64,000 bases of DNA from an uncultured Verrucomicrobiae bacterium (GCA_963837955.1 CAWIPH010000001.1:128001-192000), one strand, 5' to 3'; positions 540-46,511 are shown, numbered from the stretch's first letter. Numbers and translations: made by a program. Notes: a model not told the origin generated them from the sequence alone.

Positions 540-754
540 CGCTTAGGCATTCGCCGCCCCACGCTCGAGAGGACTTGCGGCCCGACGACGGCCGACCATA
601 CAAAGCATACACGTGGCAACCTCCTCGAATTCGCGCATCTTTAGAAACTAGGGCGTGCCGTAGTCTGCCAGGCGGTCTGTCCGACTACCGTTCTCGGTTT
701 ACTGTTTCCAGTATTGCTTCTGGCGACGACCTGTTTTATCCCCCCGGAGTAGCA

Positions 755-1534
755 GTGAAACTTCTCTTAACCGCCGATCTTCATTTTCATATTCCGTGGT
801 TCGAGTGGCTGCGGGAAGTCGCCACACAGTATGATCTCGTGGCCATCGGCGGCGACCTTCTGGATCTCGAAAATCGACAAGGAATGGCCCGCCAATTGAT
901 CTATCTTTATGAATGGACGCAGCACTTCGTAAAACGTCCCGCTTGCTTGGCGATCTGCACCGGGAATCATGATTTCCCCTCCGGCACTCCGTTAGTCTTT
1001 CCCGGAGTCCCGCTACCCAGTAATAAGCTGGCGATACTTCGTCAATTTGCTTCTGCTCAGCCCTGGCCCCAAGCGCTGAAACTAAATCATCACATTGCCG
1101 TCGACGGCGATGAAAAATTATTCCGGTTTCGCTCTGGCGAGAATTTGGCGGTTACTTGTTGTCCGTATCGTGCTGATGGGTATGTGGAACAGCTGCGCCC
1201 GCACGCTTCGCCATGGCTACTCTTGCACCACGAGCCGCCCGCTAACAGCTTGATCGCCAGTCCGAAGACCGGTAATCTGGCGTTTGCTCAGAGCATTTAC
1301 CGAAGCAAACCGACGTGGTCATTGAGCGGTCACGTACATTTCACCGTCGGCGACGAAAATTGTTTCTTTGAGCGGATCGGATCGACCGTCTGCTTCAATT
1401 GCCGCCAAAACCCGCCGGGTGGTCTGCTTCCGCCCCAACCTAATGTAATCACAATAGATACGAGGCGCCGAGCAGCGACCTGGAGACGGTGGATTACGCA
1501 GGGTGCAGACGAAGAAGTAACCGTCGACCTTTAA
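755..1534 (+). CDS. Calcineurin-like metallophosphoesterase
   Basis: Motifs TADLH, GGDLLD, GNHD, HHEPP and SGHVH. Start placed at GTG 755 (VKLLLTADLH). Confidence 0.85.
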   Translation: MKLLLTADLHFHIPWFEWLREVATQYDLVAIGGDLLDLENRQGMARQLIYLYEWTQHFVKRPACLAICTGNHDFPSGTPLVFPGVPLPSNKLAILRQFASAQPWPQALKLNHHIAVDGDEKLFRFRSGENLAVTCCPYRADGYVEQLRPHASPWLLLHHEPPANSLIASPKTGNLAFAQSIYRSKPTWSLSGHVHFTVGDENCFFERIGSTVCFNCRQNPPGGLLPPQPNVITIDTRRRAATWRRWITQGADEEVTVDL

Positions 1535-1592: not shown

Positions 1593-2297
1593 ATTCTCCG
1601 CAGATTTTCGCGGATTTTAATCAGGTCCTACCAAGCGCACTCTAAAGAGAAGAGGAGCAATCCGCAGATTTTCACGGACTATTTTATTAATCCGCAGATT
1701 TCACAGATTACGCAGATTATTTTGTTTCAGCTCCTTGTGCCGAGTCATGTGACCAAATAAAGCGCCGATGTTCTAAACTCGTTGCTCCAAAATTGATCAA
1801 GAGTCCTCTTTCATGGGTACTCGCTTTTAGATAGTTGAGGACCTGAGCCCATTCGATCTCTCCCAGTTTGGTCAACGCCTTCAACTCCACGATGATTGAC
1901 TCGTAGCAAACAAAATCTGCTCGATACGGGGCCCTCAGTTTTCTGCCCTTGTAAAAATCGGCGTTTCGACTTGAGGCAGGAATGGAATACGACGATCGCT
2001 GAGTTCTAGTTCGAGAGCCTCTTGATAGACAGGTTCGAGAAAACCGCACCCGAGTTCTTTGTGAACCTCAAGCGCCGCTCCAATGATTTGATAAGTTTGG
2101 TTATCCATGGGATAGAAATAAATAACATAAATGTAAAGCGTTGTCTAGATACGCTTACCGTGATACCTCAACCATGGGAAACTAAACTTCCCTTGCCTAC
2201 AGCGAACGTCTGCTGAGCGCCTGTACCGTCTTGGATTTAAGAAATCTGCGTAATCTGTGAAATCTGCGGATTAATAAGTAGTCGGCGAAATCCGCGG
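1593..2297. mobile_element. GxxExxY cassette bounded by inverted 9-mer tandem arrays
   Basis: Perfect 35-bp inverted repeat at 1684-1718 / 2243-2277, built from (ccgcagatt)(tcacagatt)(acgcagatt). A homologous, internally deleted copy lies at 46174-46511. Mobility is inferred. Confidence 0.6.
1717..2108 (-). pseudogene. GxxExxY protein (PD-(D/E)XK-like), single-base frameshift
   Basis: ATG 2108 gives [36 protein letters not shown]...PIF. After a frame change in a T5 run at ~1953-1957 it continues YKGRKL...RADFVCYESIIVELKA...AQVLNYLKAS...GLLINFG. Length is 392 nt (3n+2). Confidence 0.9.
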
Positions 2298-2298
2298 A

Positions 2299-3417
2299 CT
2301 ATTGCTTTCCCGTCGGCAGCCCCGCATACCCGGTTAGCTCCATATAGCCCACTCCTTGGACGGATTTCCCGGCTCGGGTGCCGTTCAGCCGGATTGCCCC
2401 TTCCCAATAGGTCACTGCCAGGTTCAGCTCTTGGTCAGGCACTGGTGTCGTGACAACGACATCGATCTGAAACTTAGGAACCCGCAACCGCCATCCAATC
2501 GGGTATCGCGCCTGGTTATGGTCGCTAGTCCAATATTCTGTTGGGTCCAGCACGAAATCATCCACTCCCAATTCGATTGCCGCGCCTGCGGGAGTCACCA
2601 ATTTCCCATTCGAATACCGATCGATCGCGCCATTCTTCAGCCGCATCTGGTAAAGCATGAGATCGGTTCCGTCGGAAAGCTGAAGCGAAAACCAATTCCA
2701 ACCAACTTGGTCTGCTGCCAGCTGGTTGGTCGCCCATTCACGATCGAACCAGGATTGGCCAGTCACTTCGTATGCTACTCCGCCAACCCGAAGCGTACCC
2801 TGGGTCCGCAAACGGGTGATTGAATAGTAATAGGAAGCGCGCCCGTCGCCGCCGGCCTTTTGGCTGAAACCATCTTTACCTTCCAGTACAGGTTGTTTGT
2901 CCGGCTCGAGATTGAGTTGAATGGATTGTTGCCCGTCCTCGGCCTCCGCATGAAAAGCGGAATCAAGATCGAGCTCCCAGTTAGAAATCCAGACCAATTT
3001 GGAGCCGGACAAAAATCCGGCATCATTGAAAGCTCCCCGACTGATCCGCTCTGAGGCGTAAAACTTCTTTGGGCCGATATCGGTAATCGTAAAATGCGCA
3101 AACTTCAGGTCATTCATGACGAAGCGGGATTTGACCGGCAGACGTTTGTTCGGCGAGCGGTAGCCGTGCCGAAAGAATGTGAGTTCGTATCCGAACTCGC
3201 GGCCTTCTTGAGACCTCAAGTTCCCCGTGAGATACCACCATTCGGTCTGGTAATCGATATGCGGTCCATGATCCCGGGGAAATTCCAGATGGTAACCTGG
3301 TTGGGCCAGCCGCCAACCATCCGCGTTAAACTCAGCTGCCCGGAGTGGAGCTGGCAGCGACAGGACAGAATAAACTGCGAGGTGTATCAAAAAATTCCGT
3401 GCTATCGATGGGATCAT
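2299..3417 (-). CDS. Secreted AttH/CrtC-like (carotenoid 1,2-hydratase / lipocalin-like) protein
   Basis: Signal peptide; FPRDHGPH, EWWYLTGNL, SYYYS, WFDREW, YWEGA and GYMELTGY motifs. Confidence 0.85.
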   Translation of the reverse strand: MIPSIARNFLIHLAVYSVLSLPAPLRAAEFNADGWRLAQPGYHLEFPRDHGPHIDYQTEWWYLTGNLRSQEGREFGYELTFFRHGYRSPNKRLPVKSRFVMNDLKFAHFTITDIGPKKFYASERISRGAFNDAGFLSGSKLVWISNWELDLDSAFHAEAEDGQQSIQLNLEPDKQPVLEGKDGFSQKAGGDGRASYYYSITRLRTQGTLRVGGVAYEVTGQSWFDREWATNQLAADQVGWNWFSLQLSDGTDLMLYQMRLKNGAIDRYSNGKLVTPAGAAIELGVDDFVLDPTEYWTSDHNQARYPIGWRLRVPKFQIDVVVTTPVPDQELNLAVTYWEGAIRLNGTRAGKSVQGVGYMELTGYAGLPTGKQ

Positions 3418-10601: not shown

Positions 10602-13190
10602 CTAAAGCCCAGCCACCCGTTCCTGCAGCTGCGCAAGGCGGTTGCTGAAGTCTCGTTCGCGTTCTCGATGCTCTTCCACCACGGCGGCCGGCGCACGATC
10701 GACGAAATTTGTGTTAGCTAGCTTTTTCCGAACAGTGTCCAACTCGGACTCCAGTTTTGCGATCTCCTTGGTCAACCGCTCTTTCTCGGCTCGCAGATCC
10801 ACTAATCCTTCTAACGGAAGAAAGACCTGTCCGAGCGGCGTCAACACCACCGGCACTCCCCGGGGTGCCTCATAGGCCGCATCCACTTGAAGTGGCTCAG
10901 CACCAGCTAGATTCGCAAAAACCGTGAAATCCCCTTCGATCACCGGGCGTAAGATCATCTTCACCTTTTTGTTCGAAGGAATACGGTATTCCGCTCGAAG
11001 GTTTCGCGCCTGCGAGGTTGCTCGGTACACCATGTCCGCAAAATCCGATTGGGCGGAGTCCAAATCGAGTTCCGTTCGAAGGTCCTCTAGCCCAGCAGAT
11101 TGGATGCTACCAGTACCGTATTCCATTCGGTGCCATAGTTCTTCGGTGATGTGCGGCATAAATGGATGGAGTAACCGGAGCACCGCGGAAAGCACGTGAT
11201 CCATTACCCAGAGACATCCAGCTTTGACTTCGAGATTTTCGCTCTGGAGTTCGGTCTTTGCCGCCTCGAGGTACGAGTCGCAGAAATCGCTCCAGAAAAA
11301 TTCGTAGATCGTCTGGGCAACCTCCGTGAAGAGATACTCCTGGTAGCCGCGTTCTATTCGATCAACAGCGGCATTTAATAACGCGAGAATGCGTGTTGAA
11401 TACGGGGAAAGCGGCAAAACTGGCCTGGCGCCGGCACGCGGACCTTGTAATTGGCGAAAACGAAAAGCATTCCATAGCTTGTTAGCAAAGTTACGCCCCT
11501 CCTCGATCTGCTTTTCATCGAATCGGATATCTTGACCGAGAGGCGCCGTGCGCATTAAGCCAAACCGTAAGCCGTCCGCTCCATATTTTGCGATCAGATC
11601 GAGTGGATCAGGCGAGTTACCCAGACTCTTCGACATTTTTCGGCCCTGGGCATCGCGAACGAGTCCGGTGAAATAAACGTTACCGAACGGCTTCTGGCCC
11701 TGGTACTCGAATCCGGCCATGATCATGCGCGCCACCCAGAAAAATATGATGTCCGGACCGGTCACGAGGTCGGTCGTCGGGTAAAACTTGCGTCGGACCG
11801 CCGGCTCCATCGTGATGAAGGACCAAAGCCAGGAAGAAAACCAGGTATCAAGAACATCGGGATCCTGCTCCCAGTTTTCTGGATCGGGCGGCGGGGTCGT
11901 AGCGACATGTAAACGGGAACGATCTTCCTTGTGATACCAGACCGGAATACGATGCCCCCACCACAGTTGGCGGCTGATACACCAGTCCTGGATATTCTCT
12001 ATCCAGTTCGAGAAGGTTTTCACCCAGCGTTCTGGGCGGAACTGAATCTCGCCACTTTGGACAGCTTCGAGAGTCCGTTGCACGTGCGGGTATTTGAGAA
12101 ACCACTGCTCGCTCAGCCTCGGCTCGATTGGCACTTGAGCTCGCTGACCATAGCCAACATTGTGTTGATACGCTTCCTCGCGAAGCAATAAGCCCATTTG
12201 TCGCAATTTTTCGACCGAAAGCTTGCGCACTTCAAATCGATCTCGACCTGCAAACTCTTCGCCAGCCAGCGCATTTAAAGTGCCGTCCGGATTGAGGACA
12301 TCGAGGATCTGCAGCCCGTGCCGTTGCCCGATCTCATAGTCGACTTTGTCATGAGCTGGAGTGACCTTGAGAACTCCGGTTCCAAATTCCGGATCGATCG
12401 CATCATCTCCAATGATCGGGATCTGCGCCCGGGGAAAAGGCCGCCAACAATGTTGGCCGATCAAGTGAGCATAGCGTTGATCTCGCGGATTCACGGCAAC
12501 CGCGGTGTCACCCATCAGCGTTTCGGGACGGGTCGTTGCGATCTCCAGATAAGTTCCCGGTAGCTCCACAATTTCATAGCGCATTATATAAAGCGTCCCG
12601 GCTGTTGGAACCGGCTCAACTTCCTCGTCCGAGAGAGCCGTGCCGGAAGCCGGACACCAGTTCACCATCCGCTTCCCCCGATAAATGAGGCCCTTGTTAA
12701 ACAAGTCTACAAAAACGGTGTTCACCGCACGCGAATAGTCGTCGTCCATGGTGAATCGCTCTCGTGACCAATCACACGAACATCCTAATCGCTTCAGCTG
12801 GTTGATGATGATGCCGCCATGTTTCTCTTTCCATTCCCAAACCCGCTCCACGAAAGCGTCTCGCCCTAGATCGTAGCGAGTCTTGCCTTCCTTTCTGAGC
12901 TGCCTTTCCACGACTGTCTGGGTAGCAATGCCGGCATGATCCATCCCCGGTAACCAAAGGACCTCTTGGCCTAACATCCGAGCGCGGCGAGCCAGAATAT
13001 CTTGGATCGTGTTATTCAACACGTGACCGAGCGTGAGCACACCAGTCACATTCGGTGGAGGCATTACGATGGAATAGGGTGGCTTCGTTGACTCCGCCCG
13101 GGCATGAAAAACCTTTTCCCGGAGCCAAGTGTCGTACCACTTGGCTTCGACAGATGCAGGTGAATAGGCCGTCGAAATCTCGGCTGTCAT
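10602..13190 (-). CDS. valS: Valine--tRNA ligase
   Basis: PPPNVTGVLTLGH (HIGH-like), DWCISRQLWWGH, KMSKS and a C-terminal coiled coil. Start set at ATG 13190 (MTAEIS). Confidence 0.97.
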   Translation of the reverse strand: MTAEISTAYSPASVEAKWYDTWLREKVFHARAESTKPPYSIVMPPPNVTGVLTLGHVLNNTIQDILARRARMLGQEVLWLPGMDHAGIATQTVVERQLRKEGKTRYDLGRDAFVERVWEWKEKHGGIIINQLKRLGCSCDWSRERFTMDDDYSRAVNTVFVDLFNKGLIYRGKRMVNWCPASGTALSDEEVEPVPTAGTLYIMRYEIVELPGTYLEIATTRPETLMGDTAVAVNPRDQRYAHLIGQHCWRPFPRAQIPIIGDDAIDPEFGTGVLKVTPAHDKVDYEIGQRHGLQILDVLNPDGTLNALAGEEFAGRDRFEVRKLSVEKLRQMGLLLREEAYQHNVGYGQRAQVPIEPRLSEQWFLKYPHVQRTLEAVQSGEIQFRPERWVKTFSNWIENIQDWCISRQLWWGHRIPVWYHKEDRSRLHVATTPPPDPENWEQDPDVLDTWFSSWLWSFITMEPAVRRKFYPTTDLVTGPDIIFFWVARMIMAGFEYQGQKPFGNVYFTGLVRDAQGRKMSKSLGNSPDPLDLIAKYGADGLRFGLMRTAPLGQDIRFDEKQIEEGRNFANKLWNAFRFRQLQGPRAGARPVLPLSPYSTRILALLNAAVDRIERGYQEYLFTEVAQTIYEFFWSDFCDSYLEAAKTELQSENLEVKAGCLWVMDHVLSAVLRLLHPFMPHITEELWHRMEYGTGSIQSAGLEDLRTELDLDSAQSDFADMVYRATSQARNLRAEYRIPSNKKVKMILRPVIEGDFTVFANLAGAEPLQVDAAYEAPRGVPVVLTPLGQVFLPLEGLVDLRAEKERLTKEIAKLESELDTVRKKLANTNFVDRAPAAVVEEHRERERDFSNRLAQLQERVAGL

Positions 13191-46014: not shown

Positions 46015-46087
46015 TGGAGCCTAGGGGATTCGAACCCCTGACCTCCTCAATGCCATTGAGGCGCTCTACCAACTGAGCTAAGACCCC
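46015..46087 (-). tRNA. tRNA-Ala(GGC)
   Basis: GGGGTCTTAGCTCAGTTGGTAGAGCGCCTCAATGGCATTGAGGAGGTCAGGGGTTCGAATCCCCTAGGCTCCA; G3-U70 Ala identity pair, GGC anticodon, CCA not encoded. Confidence 0.97.
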
Positions 46088-46173: not shown

Positions 46174-46511
46174 ATTCTCCGCACATTTTTGAGGATTTGA
46201 TCAGGTCTTACGAAGCGAGGCTAAGAGAAGAGGAATAATCCGCAGATTTCCACGGACTCTTTTATTAATCCGCAGATTTCACAGATTACGCAGATTATTT
46301 TGTTTCCGTTCCTTGCCGAGGTTCATGTGACCAAACAAAGCGCTGATGCTCCAATGATTTGATAAGTTTGGTCATCCATACGATAGGAAACAAATAACTA
46401 TAATATTTAGCGTTTTAAATACCATATGCGACGTACGCGAATTATTTCTCGACTGACAGCCTAAGTGCCTTGGATTCAGAAAAATCTGCGTAATCTGTGA
46501 AATCTGCGGAT
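46174..46511. mobile_element. Internally deleted, non-coding copy of the GxxExxY cassette (MITE-like)
   Basis: Identical 35-bp left repeat (46262-46296) and a 29-bp right repeat (46483-46511). It retains the gene start ([11 protein letters not shown]) and gene end, with ~300 bp of the middle missing. Confidence 0.75.

Follow-up and report, generated by a model that had tools for sequence, protein, structure and literature searches.

The GxxExxY cassette described here is best explained as belonging, as a gene-bearing member in decay, to a repeat-plus-nuclease system similar to the REP/RAYT systems, in which a PD-(D/E)XK enzyme would replace the HUH transposase, a reading to which we assign a probability of roughly 45%. 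The cassette lies in a genome of 5.62 Mb in two contigs, C1 and C2 (G000), of which positions 128001-192000 of C1 form the window, the whole 64,000-nucleotide stretch analysed; coordinates below are those of the window unless a contig is named. It is housed in a 765-bp spacer between a weakly matched Metallophos-family gene (575-1534, plus strand, domain match) and a CrtC/AttH-like lipocalin gene (3417-2299, minus strand, domain match, with its stop codon at 2299). The repeat arms of the cassette, dispersed through G000 mostly without the gene and also found around relatives of the gene in many phyla, suggest a kind of selfish DNA element.

A repeat search recovers the perfect inverted repeat that an earlier note on this DNA had reported around the gene (1684-1718 and 2243-2277), with arms of 35 nt that are 100% complementary and 524 nt apart. 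In the left arm (1684..1718, plus strand), three 9-nt units, CCGCAGATT, TCACAGATT, and ACGCAGATT, follow TTATTAAT, and the right arm (2243..2277, plus strand) is its exact reverse complement, with the 9-nt arm units of this cassette being of the CRCAGATT type. Degenerate units further out, also described in the earlier note, are present at 1597-1614 and 1659-1678 on the left and 2287-2298 on the right, and the inverted repeat grows to ~60 nt once gaps are allowed. The left outer segment (1593..1683, plus strand), with its degenerate units, contains a small terminator-like hairpin (1597-1614) and a CCGCAGATTTTCACGGACT unit pair (1661-1678), and belongs to the copied unit, with homology to a second copy of the cassette beginning exactly at 1593, the start that the note had given. 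The same segment is found beside the cassette of a same-genus relative, G001. On the right, the outer degenerate units (GAAATCCGCGGACT, 2278..2306, plus strand) form an imperfect extension of the inverted repeat that adjoins the AttH-like stop codon, and positions 2243-2306 align at 86% with 46231-46296 in reverse complement.

From the right arm to the start codon of the gene runs an A+T-rich leader of 134 nt with an ATAACAT-type block (2109..2242, minus strand), possibly a promoter or operator; comparable A+T-rich blocks occur upstream of the other GxxExxY genes. A scan for promoter and terminator consensus sequences gave counts no higher than those of shuffled sequences, and an Rfam scan of 1400-2500 with E values up to 1 returned no match. 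A CRISPR array, with its direct repeats set apart by unique spacers, was considered and rejected, as the cassette has inverted arms in which one unit directly adjoins the next, and tandem multimers in the family have similar interiors.

The enclosed gene (1717..2108, minus strand) is a frameshifted member of the GxxExxY/PF13366 family of PD-(D/E)XK fold, with both TIGR04256 and PF13366 matches, and is read in two overlapping frames in place of one intact ORF: an N-terminal part in frame 2108..1935 and a C-terminal part in frame 2049..1717, both on the minus strand, the latter with a stop codon that overlaps the end of the left arm. Both parts match TIGR04256 (54.9 and 73.6 bits against a cut-off of 35, with E values of 1e-14 and 1.6e-20 respectively) and PF13366 (54.9 and 68 bits, cut-off 22). 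Comparison with intact orthologues places the 1-nt frameshift at an A5 run (1953..1957, T5 on the coding strand), with the two frames overlapping at ...ETPIF / YKGRKL... and the C-terminal frame resuming at DFYKGRKL. The damage, which the earlier note had implied in referring to a repaired protein, is a single 1-nt shift, and could be either a real mutation or a homopolymer sequencing error. Alignment with intact relatives bears out the GFLEPVY and D...ELK motifs named in that note, with GFLEPVY, RADF, and VELK present in the window copy. Among 25 sequences, residues H16, G20, G22, E25, Y28, D65, E75, and K77 are near-invariant, and the window copy keeps all of the near-invariant family residues, including H16, E25, Y28, D65, E75, and K77. 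Steczkiewicz et al. 2012 give PF13366 as a family of unknown function with multiple transfers.

The window protein is 86% identical over 130 tree columns to the intact protein of G001, an AlphaFold model of which (pLDDT 92.5) is predicted to have the restriction-endonuclease-like alpha/beta core of the PD-(D/E)XK superfamily, in line with the fold that the earlier note had given for the family. The top Foldseek match of this model is Cas4 SSO0001 (E 2e-4, TM ~0.5), followed by further PD-(D/E)XK matches to the nuclease domains of AdnAB and AddAB, lambda exonuclease, and Hjc (probability 0.9-1.0, Cas4 included), and, at low rank, by the RNA-cleaving PD-(D/E)XK tRNA splicing endonucleases and viral PA endonucleases. 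A sequence search of the PDB with the family profile gave a single match at E 0.72, and no close solved relative. The likeness to Cas4/RecB-type cores lies in the core fold and the acidic and lysine catalytic positions, and the matches are weak (TM ~0.5, 11-17% identity); unlike these proteins, the GxxExxY protein lacks an Fe-S cluster module, and its context includes neither a helicase nor CRISPR. The two gene halves, which make up most of the cassette interior, match PF13366 only, with no DDE, HUH, or tyrosine-recombinase domain found in them, as the earlier note had stated of the cassette.

The arms belong to a dispersed repeat family. The 12-mer AATCCGCAGATT occurs 18 times in G000 against ~0.5 occurrences expected from base composition, and the 27-mer array, with up to 5 mismatches allowed, is found at 30 places, which form 18 loci once one 5-mismatch place at C2:3367646 is set aside. 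With a stricter pattern G000 yields 23 matches, and the reversed pattern yields none in it or in any of the 41 genomes in which it was sought. Eight of the 18 loci are inverted pairs with arms 80-600 bp apart, several of the "solo" arrays have visibly degenerate partners, and most members of the family are gene-less; a transposase is enclosed at none of the 18, and the GxxExxY cassette is the only coding member. At its conserved end the family reads ...CCGCAGAGGAATAAT-CCGCAGATT..., and similarity between copies stops there. The gene-less elements have interiors of their own (80-200 bp). The family has at least three interior types, two of which form tandem multimers with shared arms. Elements C2:2554.5k and C2:4552.4k have a common interior and an identical asymmetry of the arms, which argues that whole units were copied and not single arms. 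Members in G000 are 76-87% alike, and so give no sign of recent activity. Paired arms in G000 show no concerted evolution, with 23.9 of 27 positions identical within pairs and 23.7 of 27 between loci (7637 of 20000 permutations reach the observed value).

The second copy of the cassette in the window (46174..46511, plus strand) shares the outer segment and is internally deleted, with arms at 46268-46296 and 46483-46511. It retains ~60 nt of the 3' end of the gene and ~65 nt of its 5' end and leader taken together, and misses ~300 bp corresponding to 1777-2076, with blocks of homology pairing 1593-1776 with 46174-46354 (87%), 2077-2142 with 46348-46414 (84%), and 2230-2271 with 46469-46511 (93%). 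The locus at C1:446.9k likewise keeps the 3' end of the gene. The arms of the two window copies are identical at 64 of 64 positions, against 193 of 232 (83%) elsewhere in the cassette (Fisher p 4e-5), so that the arms change more slowly than the gene. Furthermore, the arms of the window copy are perfect yet its gene is frameshifted, which indicates that the arms are independent of the product of this copy. A C-terminal AttH-like fragment that had been noted by eye beside the second copy was rejected, as tblastn returned nothing there at E values up to 10.

The relatives available are all ~80% identical to G000 or less, most of them fragmented MAGs, and G001 is the sole one that is syntenic at the window junction; G002-G004 were left out as empty-site controls there, as their flanking genes lie on different contigs or beside other genes. 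In G001 the Metallophos/AttH-like junction is conserved and its spacer of ~145-165 bp has no arrays, and hence the cassette is absent at the junction that the earlier note had singled out for comparison of filled and empty alleles. This spacer is unalignable with that of G000, and an insertion in G000 and a deletion in G001 are therefore indistinguishable; the spacers of relatives in general are unalignable at 78-81% nucleotide identity, and both fit. At the site syntenic with the second copy, G001 carries an intact 130-aa gene between CCGCAGATT-TCGCCGATT-ACGCCGATT arms, with the interior of the cassette in the opposite orientation to the outer segment and the neighbouring tRNA-Ala(GGC) inverted as well. 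Presence and absence are also seen for a gene-less member of the family at C2:2072.3k, whose syntenic spacer is empty in G002 (~45 bp), holds unrelated sequence without arrays in G003, and holds an element of another unit type in G004. The earlier note had taken the arrays to be the ends of a mobile cassette; the 18 dispersed loci and the deleted sister copy agree with this, and the target duplications that the note had looked to were not seen at the three element ends compared, in a set whose filled and empty pairs all fall short of 95% identity and whose ends are not base-exact.

It is highly improbable that nothing moves here, that is, that the locus is static and vertically inherited, with its resemblances to other loci arising from segmental duplication and convergent simple-sequence expansion. 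The age of the G000 copies, the lack of a target duplication at the ends compared, and the possibility of a deletion in the "empty" spacer of G001 would all fit such a history, but the 18 dispersed loci have common ends within different flanks, the reversed-pattern control is 0 in 41 genomes, the occupancy of the syntenic spacer differs among the four congeners, and one unit accompanies one protein clade in ~15 phyla, as set out below.

All five GxxExxY genes in G000 have flanking inverted repeats, with scores of 58, 55, 39, 16, and 35, against only 9 of 1500 random 340-bp segments of the genome with a flanking inverted repeat scoring at least 16 (Fisher p 3e-11). Arms scoring at least 16 are likewise present at 21 of the 27 best-per-genome GxxExxY loci in order-level relatives. 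Each paralogue in G000 has its own arm sequence and unit type: in four of the five the arms clearly consist of phased units of 8-9 nt with a core similar to CRCRRAG, the C2:476313 gene has longer, more complex arms containing CGCAGAGA-type words, and the paralogue at C2:5005310 has ACGCAAAG arms. Arrays are thus strongly enriched beside GxxExxY genes, and the cassette does not sit at the same locus in all relatives, the two points on which the earlier note had staked its claim.

Similar arms are found at other genes. Six of the seven PF05635 four-helix-bundle genes in G000 lie in phased inverted arms of 7-8-nt units, and since these genes encode no nuclease fold, a cassette-encoded nuclease is not the general driver of such arms. 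G000 also has eight Y1_Tnp matches, several of which are flanked by palindromic REP-like repeats, with the Y1_Tnp gene at C2:1214163 lying inside ATGGAGTA phased arrays. A census of the genome gives 1097 inverted pairs, 318 of them with periodic arms that merge into 93 loci of at least ten unit families, and most of these loci are gene-less, with no gene within any of the pairs examined of the commonest family, GGGAACGCC. Like arrays also bracket ordinary genes (folP-like, ETF, TauE, SDR, and others), these being long-span pairs in which the arrays merely sit in neighbouring spacers. The census, the PF05635 genes, and the Y1_Tnp arms together indicate that the inverted arrangement as such is not unique to GxxExxY genes; the tight cassettes of ~500-620 bp are.

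These observations bear on a second explanation, in which a RAYT-type Y1 transposase acting in trans, or replication slippage and recombination, propagates the arrays as a host or selfish repeat of REP/BIME-like kind, with the GxxExxY and PF05635 genes being passengers or small selfish genes that preferentially insert into, or persist within, such hairpins. The eight Y1_Tnp matches could act in trans on the arms, and their REP-like palindromes, the C2:1214163 gene within ATGGAGTA arrays, and the predominance of gene-less census loci, including the GGGAACGCC pairs, are all as this explanation would have it. Additionally, solo CAGATT arrays adjoin REP-type palindromes at C2:2347.9k and C2:2406.4k, and arrays persist in seven relatives in which the gene of the clade was not found. 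We nevertheless judge it unlikely, as none of the eight Y1_Tnp matches in G000 is flanked by CAGATT arrays, the arrays consist of tandem units and are not self-palindromic hairpins with a GTAG head, and neither the constancy of the unit across the cross-phylum loci described next nor the use of one unit per paralogue is accounted for.

The repeat-plus-nuclease reading draws on the agreement between arm unit and protein clade. In a quick tree of 30 rows, in which unit classes were labelled by eye and kin share labels, a single 10-row clade (SH-aLRT 83) takes in all nine CAGATT-armed rows, and six of them, including the window copy, make up the 6-row clade starred within that tree (SH-aLRT 95). 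The CAGATT-type unit also flanks genes of this clade in other genera (G011, G014, and G020). Beyond these, the 80 best relatives in genome_contigs, at 54-100% identity, come from records whose titles name ~15 phyla, including Acidobacteriota, Planctomycetota, Chloroflexota, Desulfobacterota, Pseudomonadota, Bacteroidota, Nitrospirota, and Spirochaetota. At least two CRCAGAT units are present on each side of the gene in 62 of these 80, and in the same orientation in 56, whilst none of 20000 random segments of G000 has at least two on both sides. Arms score at least 16 at 56 of the 78 loci of this set with full flanks. Together with the counts from G000 and from the order-level relatives, these figures uphold the enrichment of arrays that the earlier note had expected. 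Since neutral DNA would be randomised at ~60% protein identity, selection acts on the CRCAGAT unit, which accompanies the gene as it spreads.

The abundance of arrays follows the gene loosely. Among 41 relatives, at least five arrays are present in 8 of the 13 genomes with the gene of the clade (at least 50% identity) and in 7 of the 28 without it, a difference with p 0.04 among genomes whose kin are not independent; all seven array-rich genomes without the gene are fragmented assemblies. At the 56 cross-phylum loci that have units on either side of the gene, the upstream gap from the last unit to the protein match has a median of ~30 nt and is at most 40 nt in 35 of them, and in many cases the open frame extends into the downstream arm (median -18 nt). 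A promoter inside the arm would have little space in so short a gap, and this, with the overlap of the frame or stop codon, makes it probable that the arms are part of the mRNA.

This placement of the arms raises a third explanation, in which the cassette acts at the RNA level in a manner similar to the intervening sequences (IVS) of 23S rRNA: co-transcribed arms would pair as a 27-35-bp stem and be processed by RNase III, or by the PD-(D/E)XK protein as an RNA endonuclease, and would serve the expression, insulation, and stability of the transcript, with spread occurring through recombination or horizontal transfer and not through a cassette-encoded DNA nuclease. The short upstream gap and the extension of the frame into the downstream arm agree with this, as do the stop codon of the window gene, which overlaps its arm, the RNA-cleaving PD-(D/E)XK enzymes among the Foldseek matches, if at low rank, and the like architecture in G000 of six of seven PF05635 genes, the ORF type that PMC11270868 gives for rRNA intervening sequences. 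A stem alone, however, needs only complementarity, yet CRCAGAT is kept across phyla at ~60% protein identity, and several pairs in G000 are imperfect, their asymmetry having been inherited and not offset by compensatory changes. Copying at the DNA level would still be required for the gene-less copies, the tandem multimers, and the polymorphism in presence and absence, and the single 23S rRNA gene of G000 has no insertion (2852 nt over 2925 model positions). On balance we think it improbable that the arms serve at the RNA level in place of a DNA nuclease.

Under the repeat-plus-nuclease reading, the phased CRCAGATT units in both arms would be sequence-specific sites for the small PD-(D/E)XK protein that they enclose. 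We infer that the protein binds and cleaves the arms and catalyses movement there, probably as a multimer reading three to four units per arm, with the arms cut either as duplex or as an extruded hairpin. Cutting would then mobilise or copy both its own cassette and the far commoner gene-less arm pairs. In a homing variant of this mechanism, the nuclease would cut gene-less pairs of its own unit type and the gene would be copied in by repair. Decay may proceed from a frameshift, as at the window locus, through internal deletion, as at 46174-46511, to a gene-less hairpin; the stages seen are intact (G001), frameshifted (1717-2108), internally deleted (46174-46511), and gene-less (elsewhere). 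Several results weigh against this reading: the broken gene within perfect arms, the like arms of PF05635 genes and the arrays around ordinary genes, the loose co-occurrence of arrays and gene among relatives, the lack of concerted evolution between paired arms, the age of the copies, and the failure to see a target duplication at the ends compared.

A broader and rather doubtful proposal, which we put forward tentatively, is that an undescribed class of miniature mobile elements has GxxExxY cassettes as its autonomous members, in which a PD-(D/E)XK nuclease of ~130 aa reads phased arm units of 8-10 nt, cuts the extruded hairpin or duplex, and moves itself and gene-less pairs without a DDE, HUH, serine, or tyrosine recombinase. 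Such cassettes would cross phyla with a private unit "code" for each nuclease clade, and a sister class with the same arm logic would comprise the PF05635 cassettes, rRNA intervening sequences among them. Literature searches on GxxExxY, PF13366/PDDEXK_3/DUF4137, IVS-protein, REPIN/RAYT, and STRR topics, with subscription journals outside their scope, found no description of a pairing of GxxExxY genes with repeats.

By analogy, the GxxExxY system would appear to work most like REP/REPIN sequences with their RAYT (TnpA-REP, Y1 HUH) genes (PMC3116915, PMC3337134, PMC3733652), although it departs from them in two defining features, the enzyme and the form of the repeat. Shared with these systems are a small, usually single-copy enzyme gene set between copies of its own repeat in inverted orientation, numerous gene-less inverted doublets in intergenic spacers, which are found here also, separate repeat families for each paralogue, and the lack of a visible target duplication, here at the three element ends compared. 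The enzyme here is of the PD-(D/E)XK type and not HUH/Y1 (PF01797), and the repeat consists of tandem phased units of 8-10 nt, in contrast to the short self-palindromic hairpins with GTAG or CGTC heads of REP sequences. Furthermore, RAYT systems are passed on mainly by vertical inheritance according to 10.1101/2022.05.22.493013, whereas the CRCAGAT unit and its protein clade are spread over many phyla.

Intervening sequences of 23S rRNA, known for example from Leptospira and Coxiella, offer a further comparison. Their ORF is of the four-helix-bundle PF05635 type (23S_rRNA_IVP) according to PMC11270868, and they resemble the cassette in a small ORF within complementary ends that form a long stem, a sporadic distribution, and an unknown mode of spread. 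The cassette differs in lying between protein-coding genes and not in rRNA, and in its ORF of nuclease fold.

MITEs, such as the Correia/NEMIS elements of Neisseria, are short non-coding elements with terminal inverted repeats and many copies in spacers, transcripts of which form hairpins. The gene-less spacer copies, inverted ends, and deletion derivatives of a longer element seen here are similar, but the arms are internally periodic and the only gene-bearing members encode a nuclease-fold protein of 125-140 aa; a classical MITE was rejected, as no transposase-bearing parent was found among the 18 loci, and no target duplication was seen at the three ends compared. Homing endonuclease genes, some of which encode PD-(D/E)XK enzymes, pass through a cycle of invasion and decay, and share with the cassette a small free-standing nuclease gene, flanks resembling a split target, and the occurrence of intact, frameshifted, internally deleted, and empty states. 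The presumed target here is a dispersed repeat family, in contrast to the single conserved host gene of homing. The short tandemly repeated repetitive (STRR) heptamers of heterocystous cyanobacteria are also similar in forming families of tandem 7-nt units in intergenic spacers; we know of no description of them as inverted arms around small genes.

If the nuclease acts on its own arms, the system would be a second and mechanistically different solution to the REP/RAYT lifestyle, with cassettes occurring in many phyla that lack well-studied repeats, and would provide a function for PF13366, a large Pfam family of "unknown" role. The origin and spread of rRNA intervening sequences and of many intergenic hairpin repeats could then be explained as well, and the pattern of one unit for one clade suggests a small, modular, and directly testable system of protein-nucleic acid recognition. 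The arms also make up a sizeable part of the intergenic "junk" of G000 (93 loci), and break short-read assemblies.

Two minor observations concern the surroundings of the arrays. A tRNA gene is less than 200 bp away at three of the 18 CAGATT loci (binomial 6e-5 relative to the whole-genome fraction, in a test that ignores both being intergenic), and less than 300 bp away at only 4 of the 93 census loci; targeting of tRNA genes is accordingly not claimed. Finally, GxxExxY genes are also found on two viral contigs, where they are flanked by arms of other unit types.

A genome-wide census of the source genome (G000, comprising contigs C1 and C2) yielded 93 loci with inverted arrays of phased 6-10-nt units, including those at C2:1252463-1252680, C2:1270521-1270962, and C2:2932156-2932605. 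These loci represent at least 10 unit families, with GGGAACGCC the commonest, and GGTGAKW, GTTRCAG, ATAGCNG, AATCAGT, ATGACAA, ATGGAGTA, and ACGCAAAG among the others. No gene was found inside any of the GGGAACGCC array pairs examined in G000. Six of the seven PF05635 genes of G000, of the 23S rRNA IVS protein type with a four-helix bundle (C2:1972179, C2:96174, C2:1293520, C2:1568704, C1:534056, and C2:3080659), lie within inverted arrays of 7-8-nt units, each gene with a unit of its own. The ATGGAGTA unit flanking the PF05635 gene at C2:1293520 is also found around a Y1_Tnp (IS200/RAYT-like) gene at C2:1213767-1214715, where REP-type palindromes lie nearest the gene and the phased ATGGAGTA arrays further out.

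The region C2:4.44-4.60 Mb forms a dense island in which spacer after spacer is filled by arrays. Its unit types include ACGCAAAG and ATGACAA, and the genes enclosed by the arrays are ordinary ones: TauE, aldo-keto reductase, SDR, DoxX, a gene with a PIN domain, and an HTH gene of IS481 type.

Three of the 18 G000 loci with CAGATT-type arrays, the unit type of the cassette, are located less than 200 bp from the 5' side of tRNA genes (C1:174270, C2:1566853, and C2:3343229; tRNAs Ala-GGC, Glu-TTC, and Glu-CTC), compared with 4/93 census loci less than 300 bp from a tRNA gene. The tRNA-Ala(GGC) adjoining a cassette site (window 46015-46087, G000:C1:174015-174087) is in opposite orientation in the same-genus relative G001 (L013:1817-1889), with both flanks collinear, and the cassette interior at this site is likewise flipped relative to its outer segment. 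The spacer syntenic with the gene-less locus G000:C2:2072.3k may be an insertion hot spot. It is occupied by an element of CAGATT type in G000 and by one of CGCAAAG/CGCAGAA type in G004 (L058, G004:C375, about 12616-12771), and is empty in G002.

At the cassette, a small hairpin made of two repeat units precedes a run of T (window 1597-1623; TCCGCAGATTTTCGCGGA TTTT), 63 nt 3' of the stop codon of the Metallophos gene. That gene may take its terminator from the element, with scan counts for such signals not above those of shuffles. Directly 5' of GxxExxY start codons, across different unit types, is an A+T-rich block containing an ATAACAT / TATATA-type motif (window 2109-2160; G000:C2:476700, C2:5005680, and C2:4378700; L013:2220-2260). 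This block may be a promoter or operator common to these genes.

On two contigs classed as viral (L165:950-1400 and L166:840-1400), GxxExxY genes likewise lie within inverted arrays, of CGCNAAAG or CACGAAAAG units, and one of these genes contains in-frame stops. In G011, a genome of another genus, one cassette with CGCAGATT arms (L016:1190-2080, G011:C11) carries, beyond those arms, another inverted repeat, about 90 bp long, and a tandemly duplicated 3' spacer, resulting in nested hairpins.
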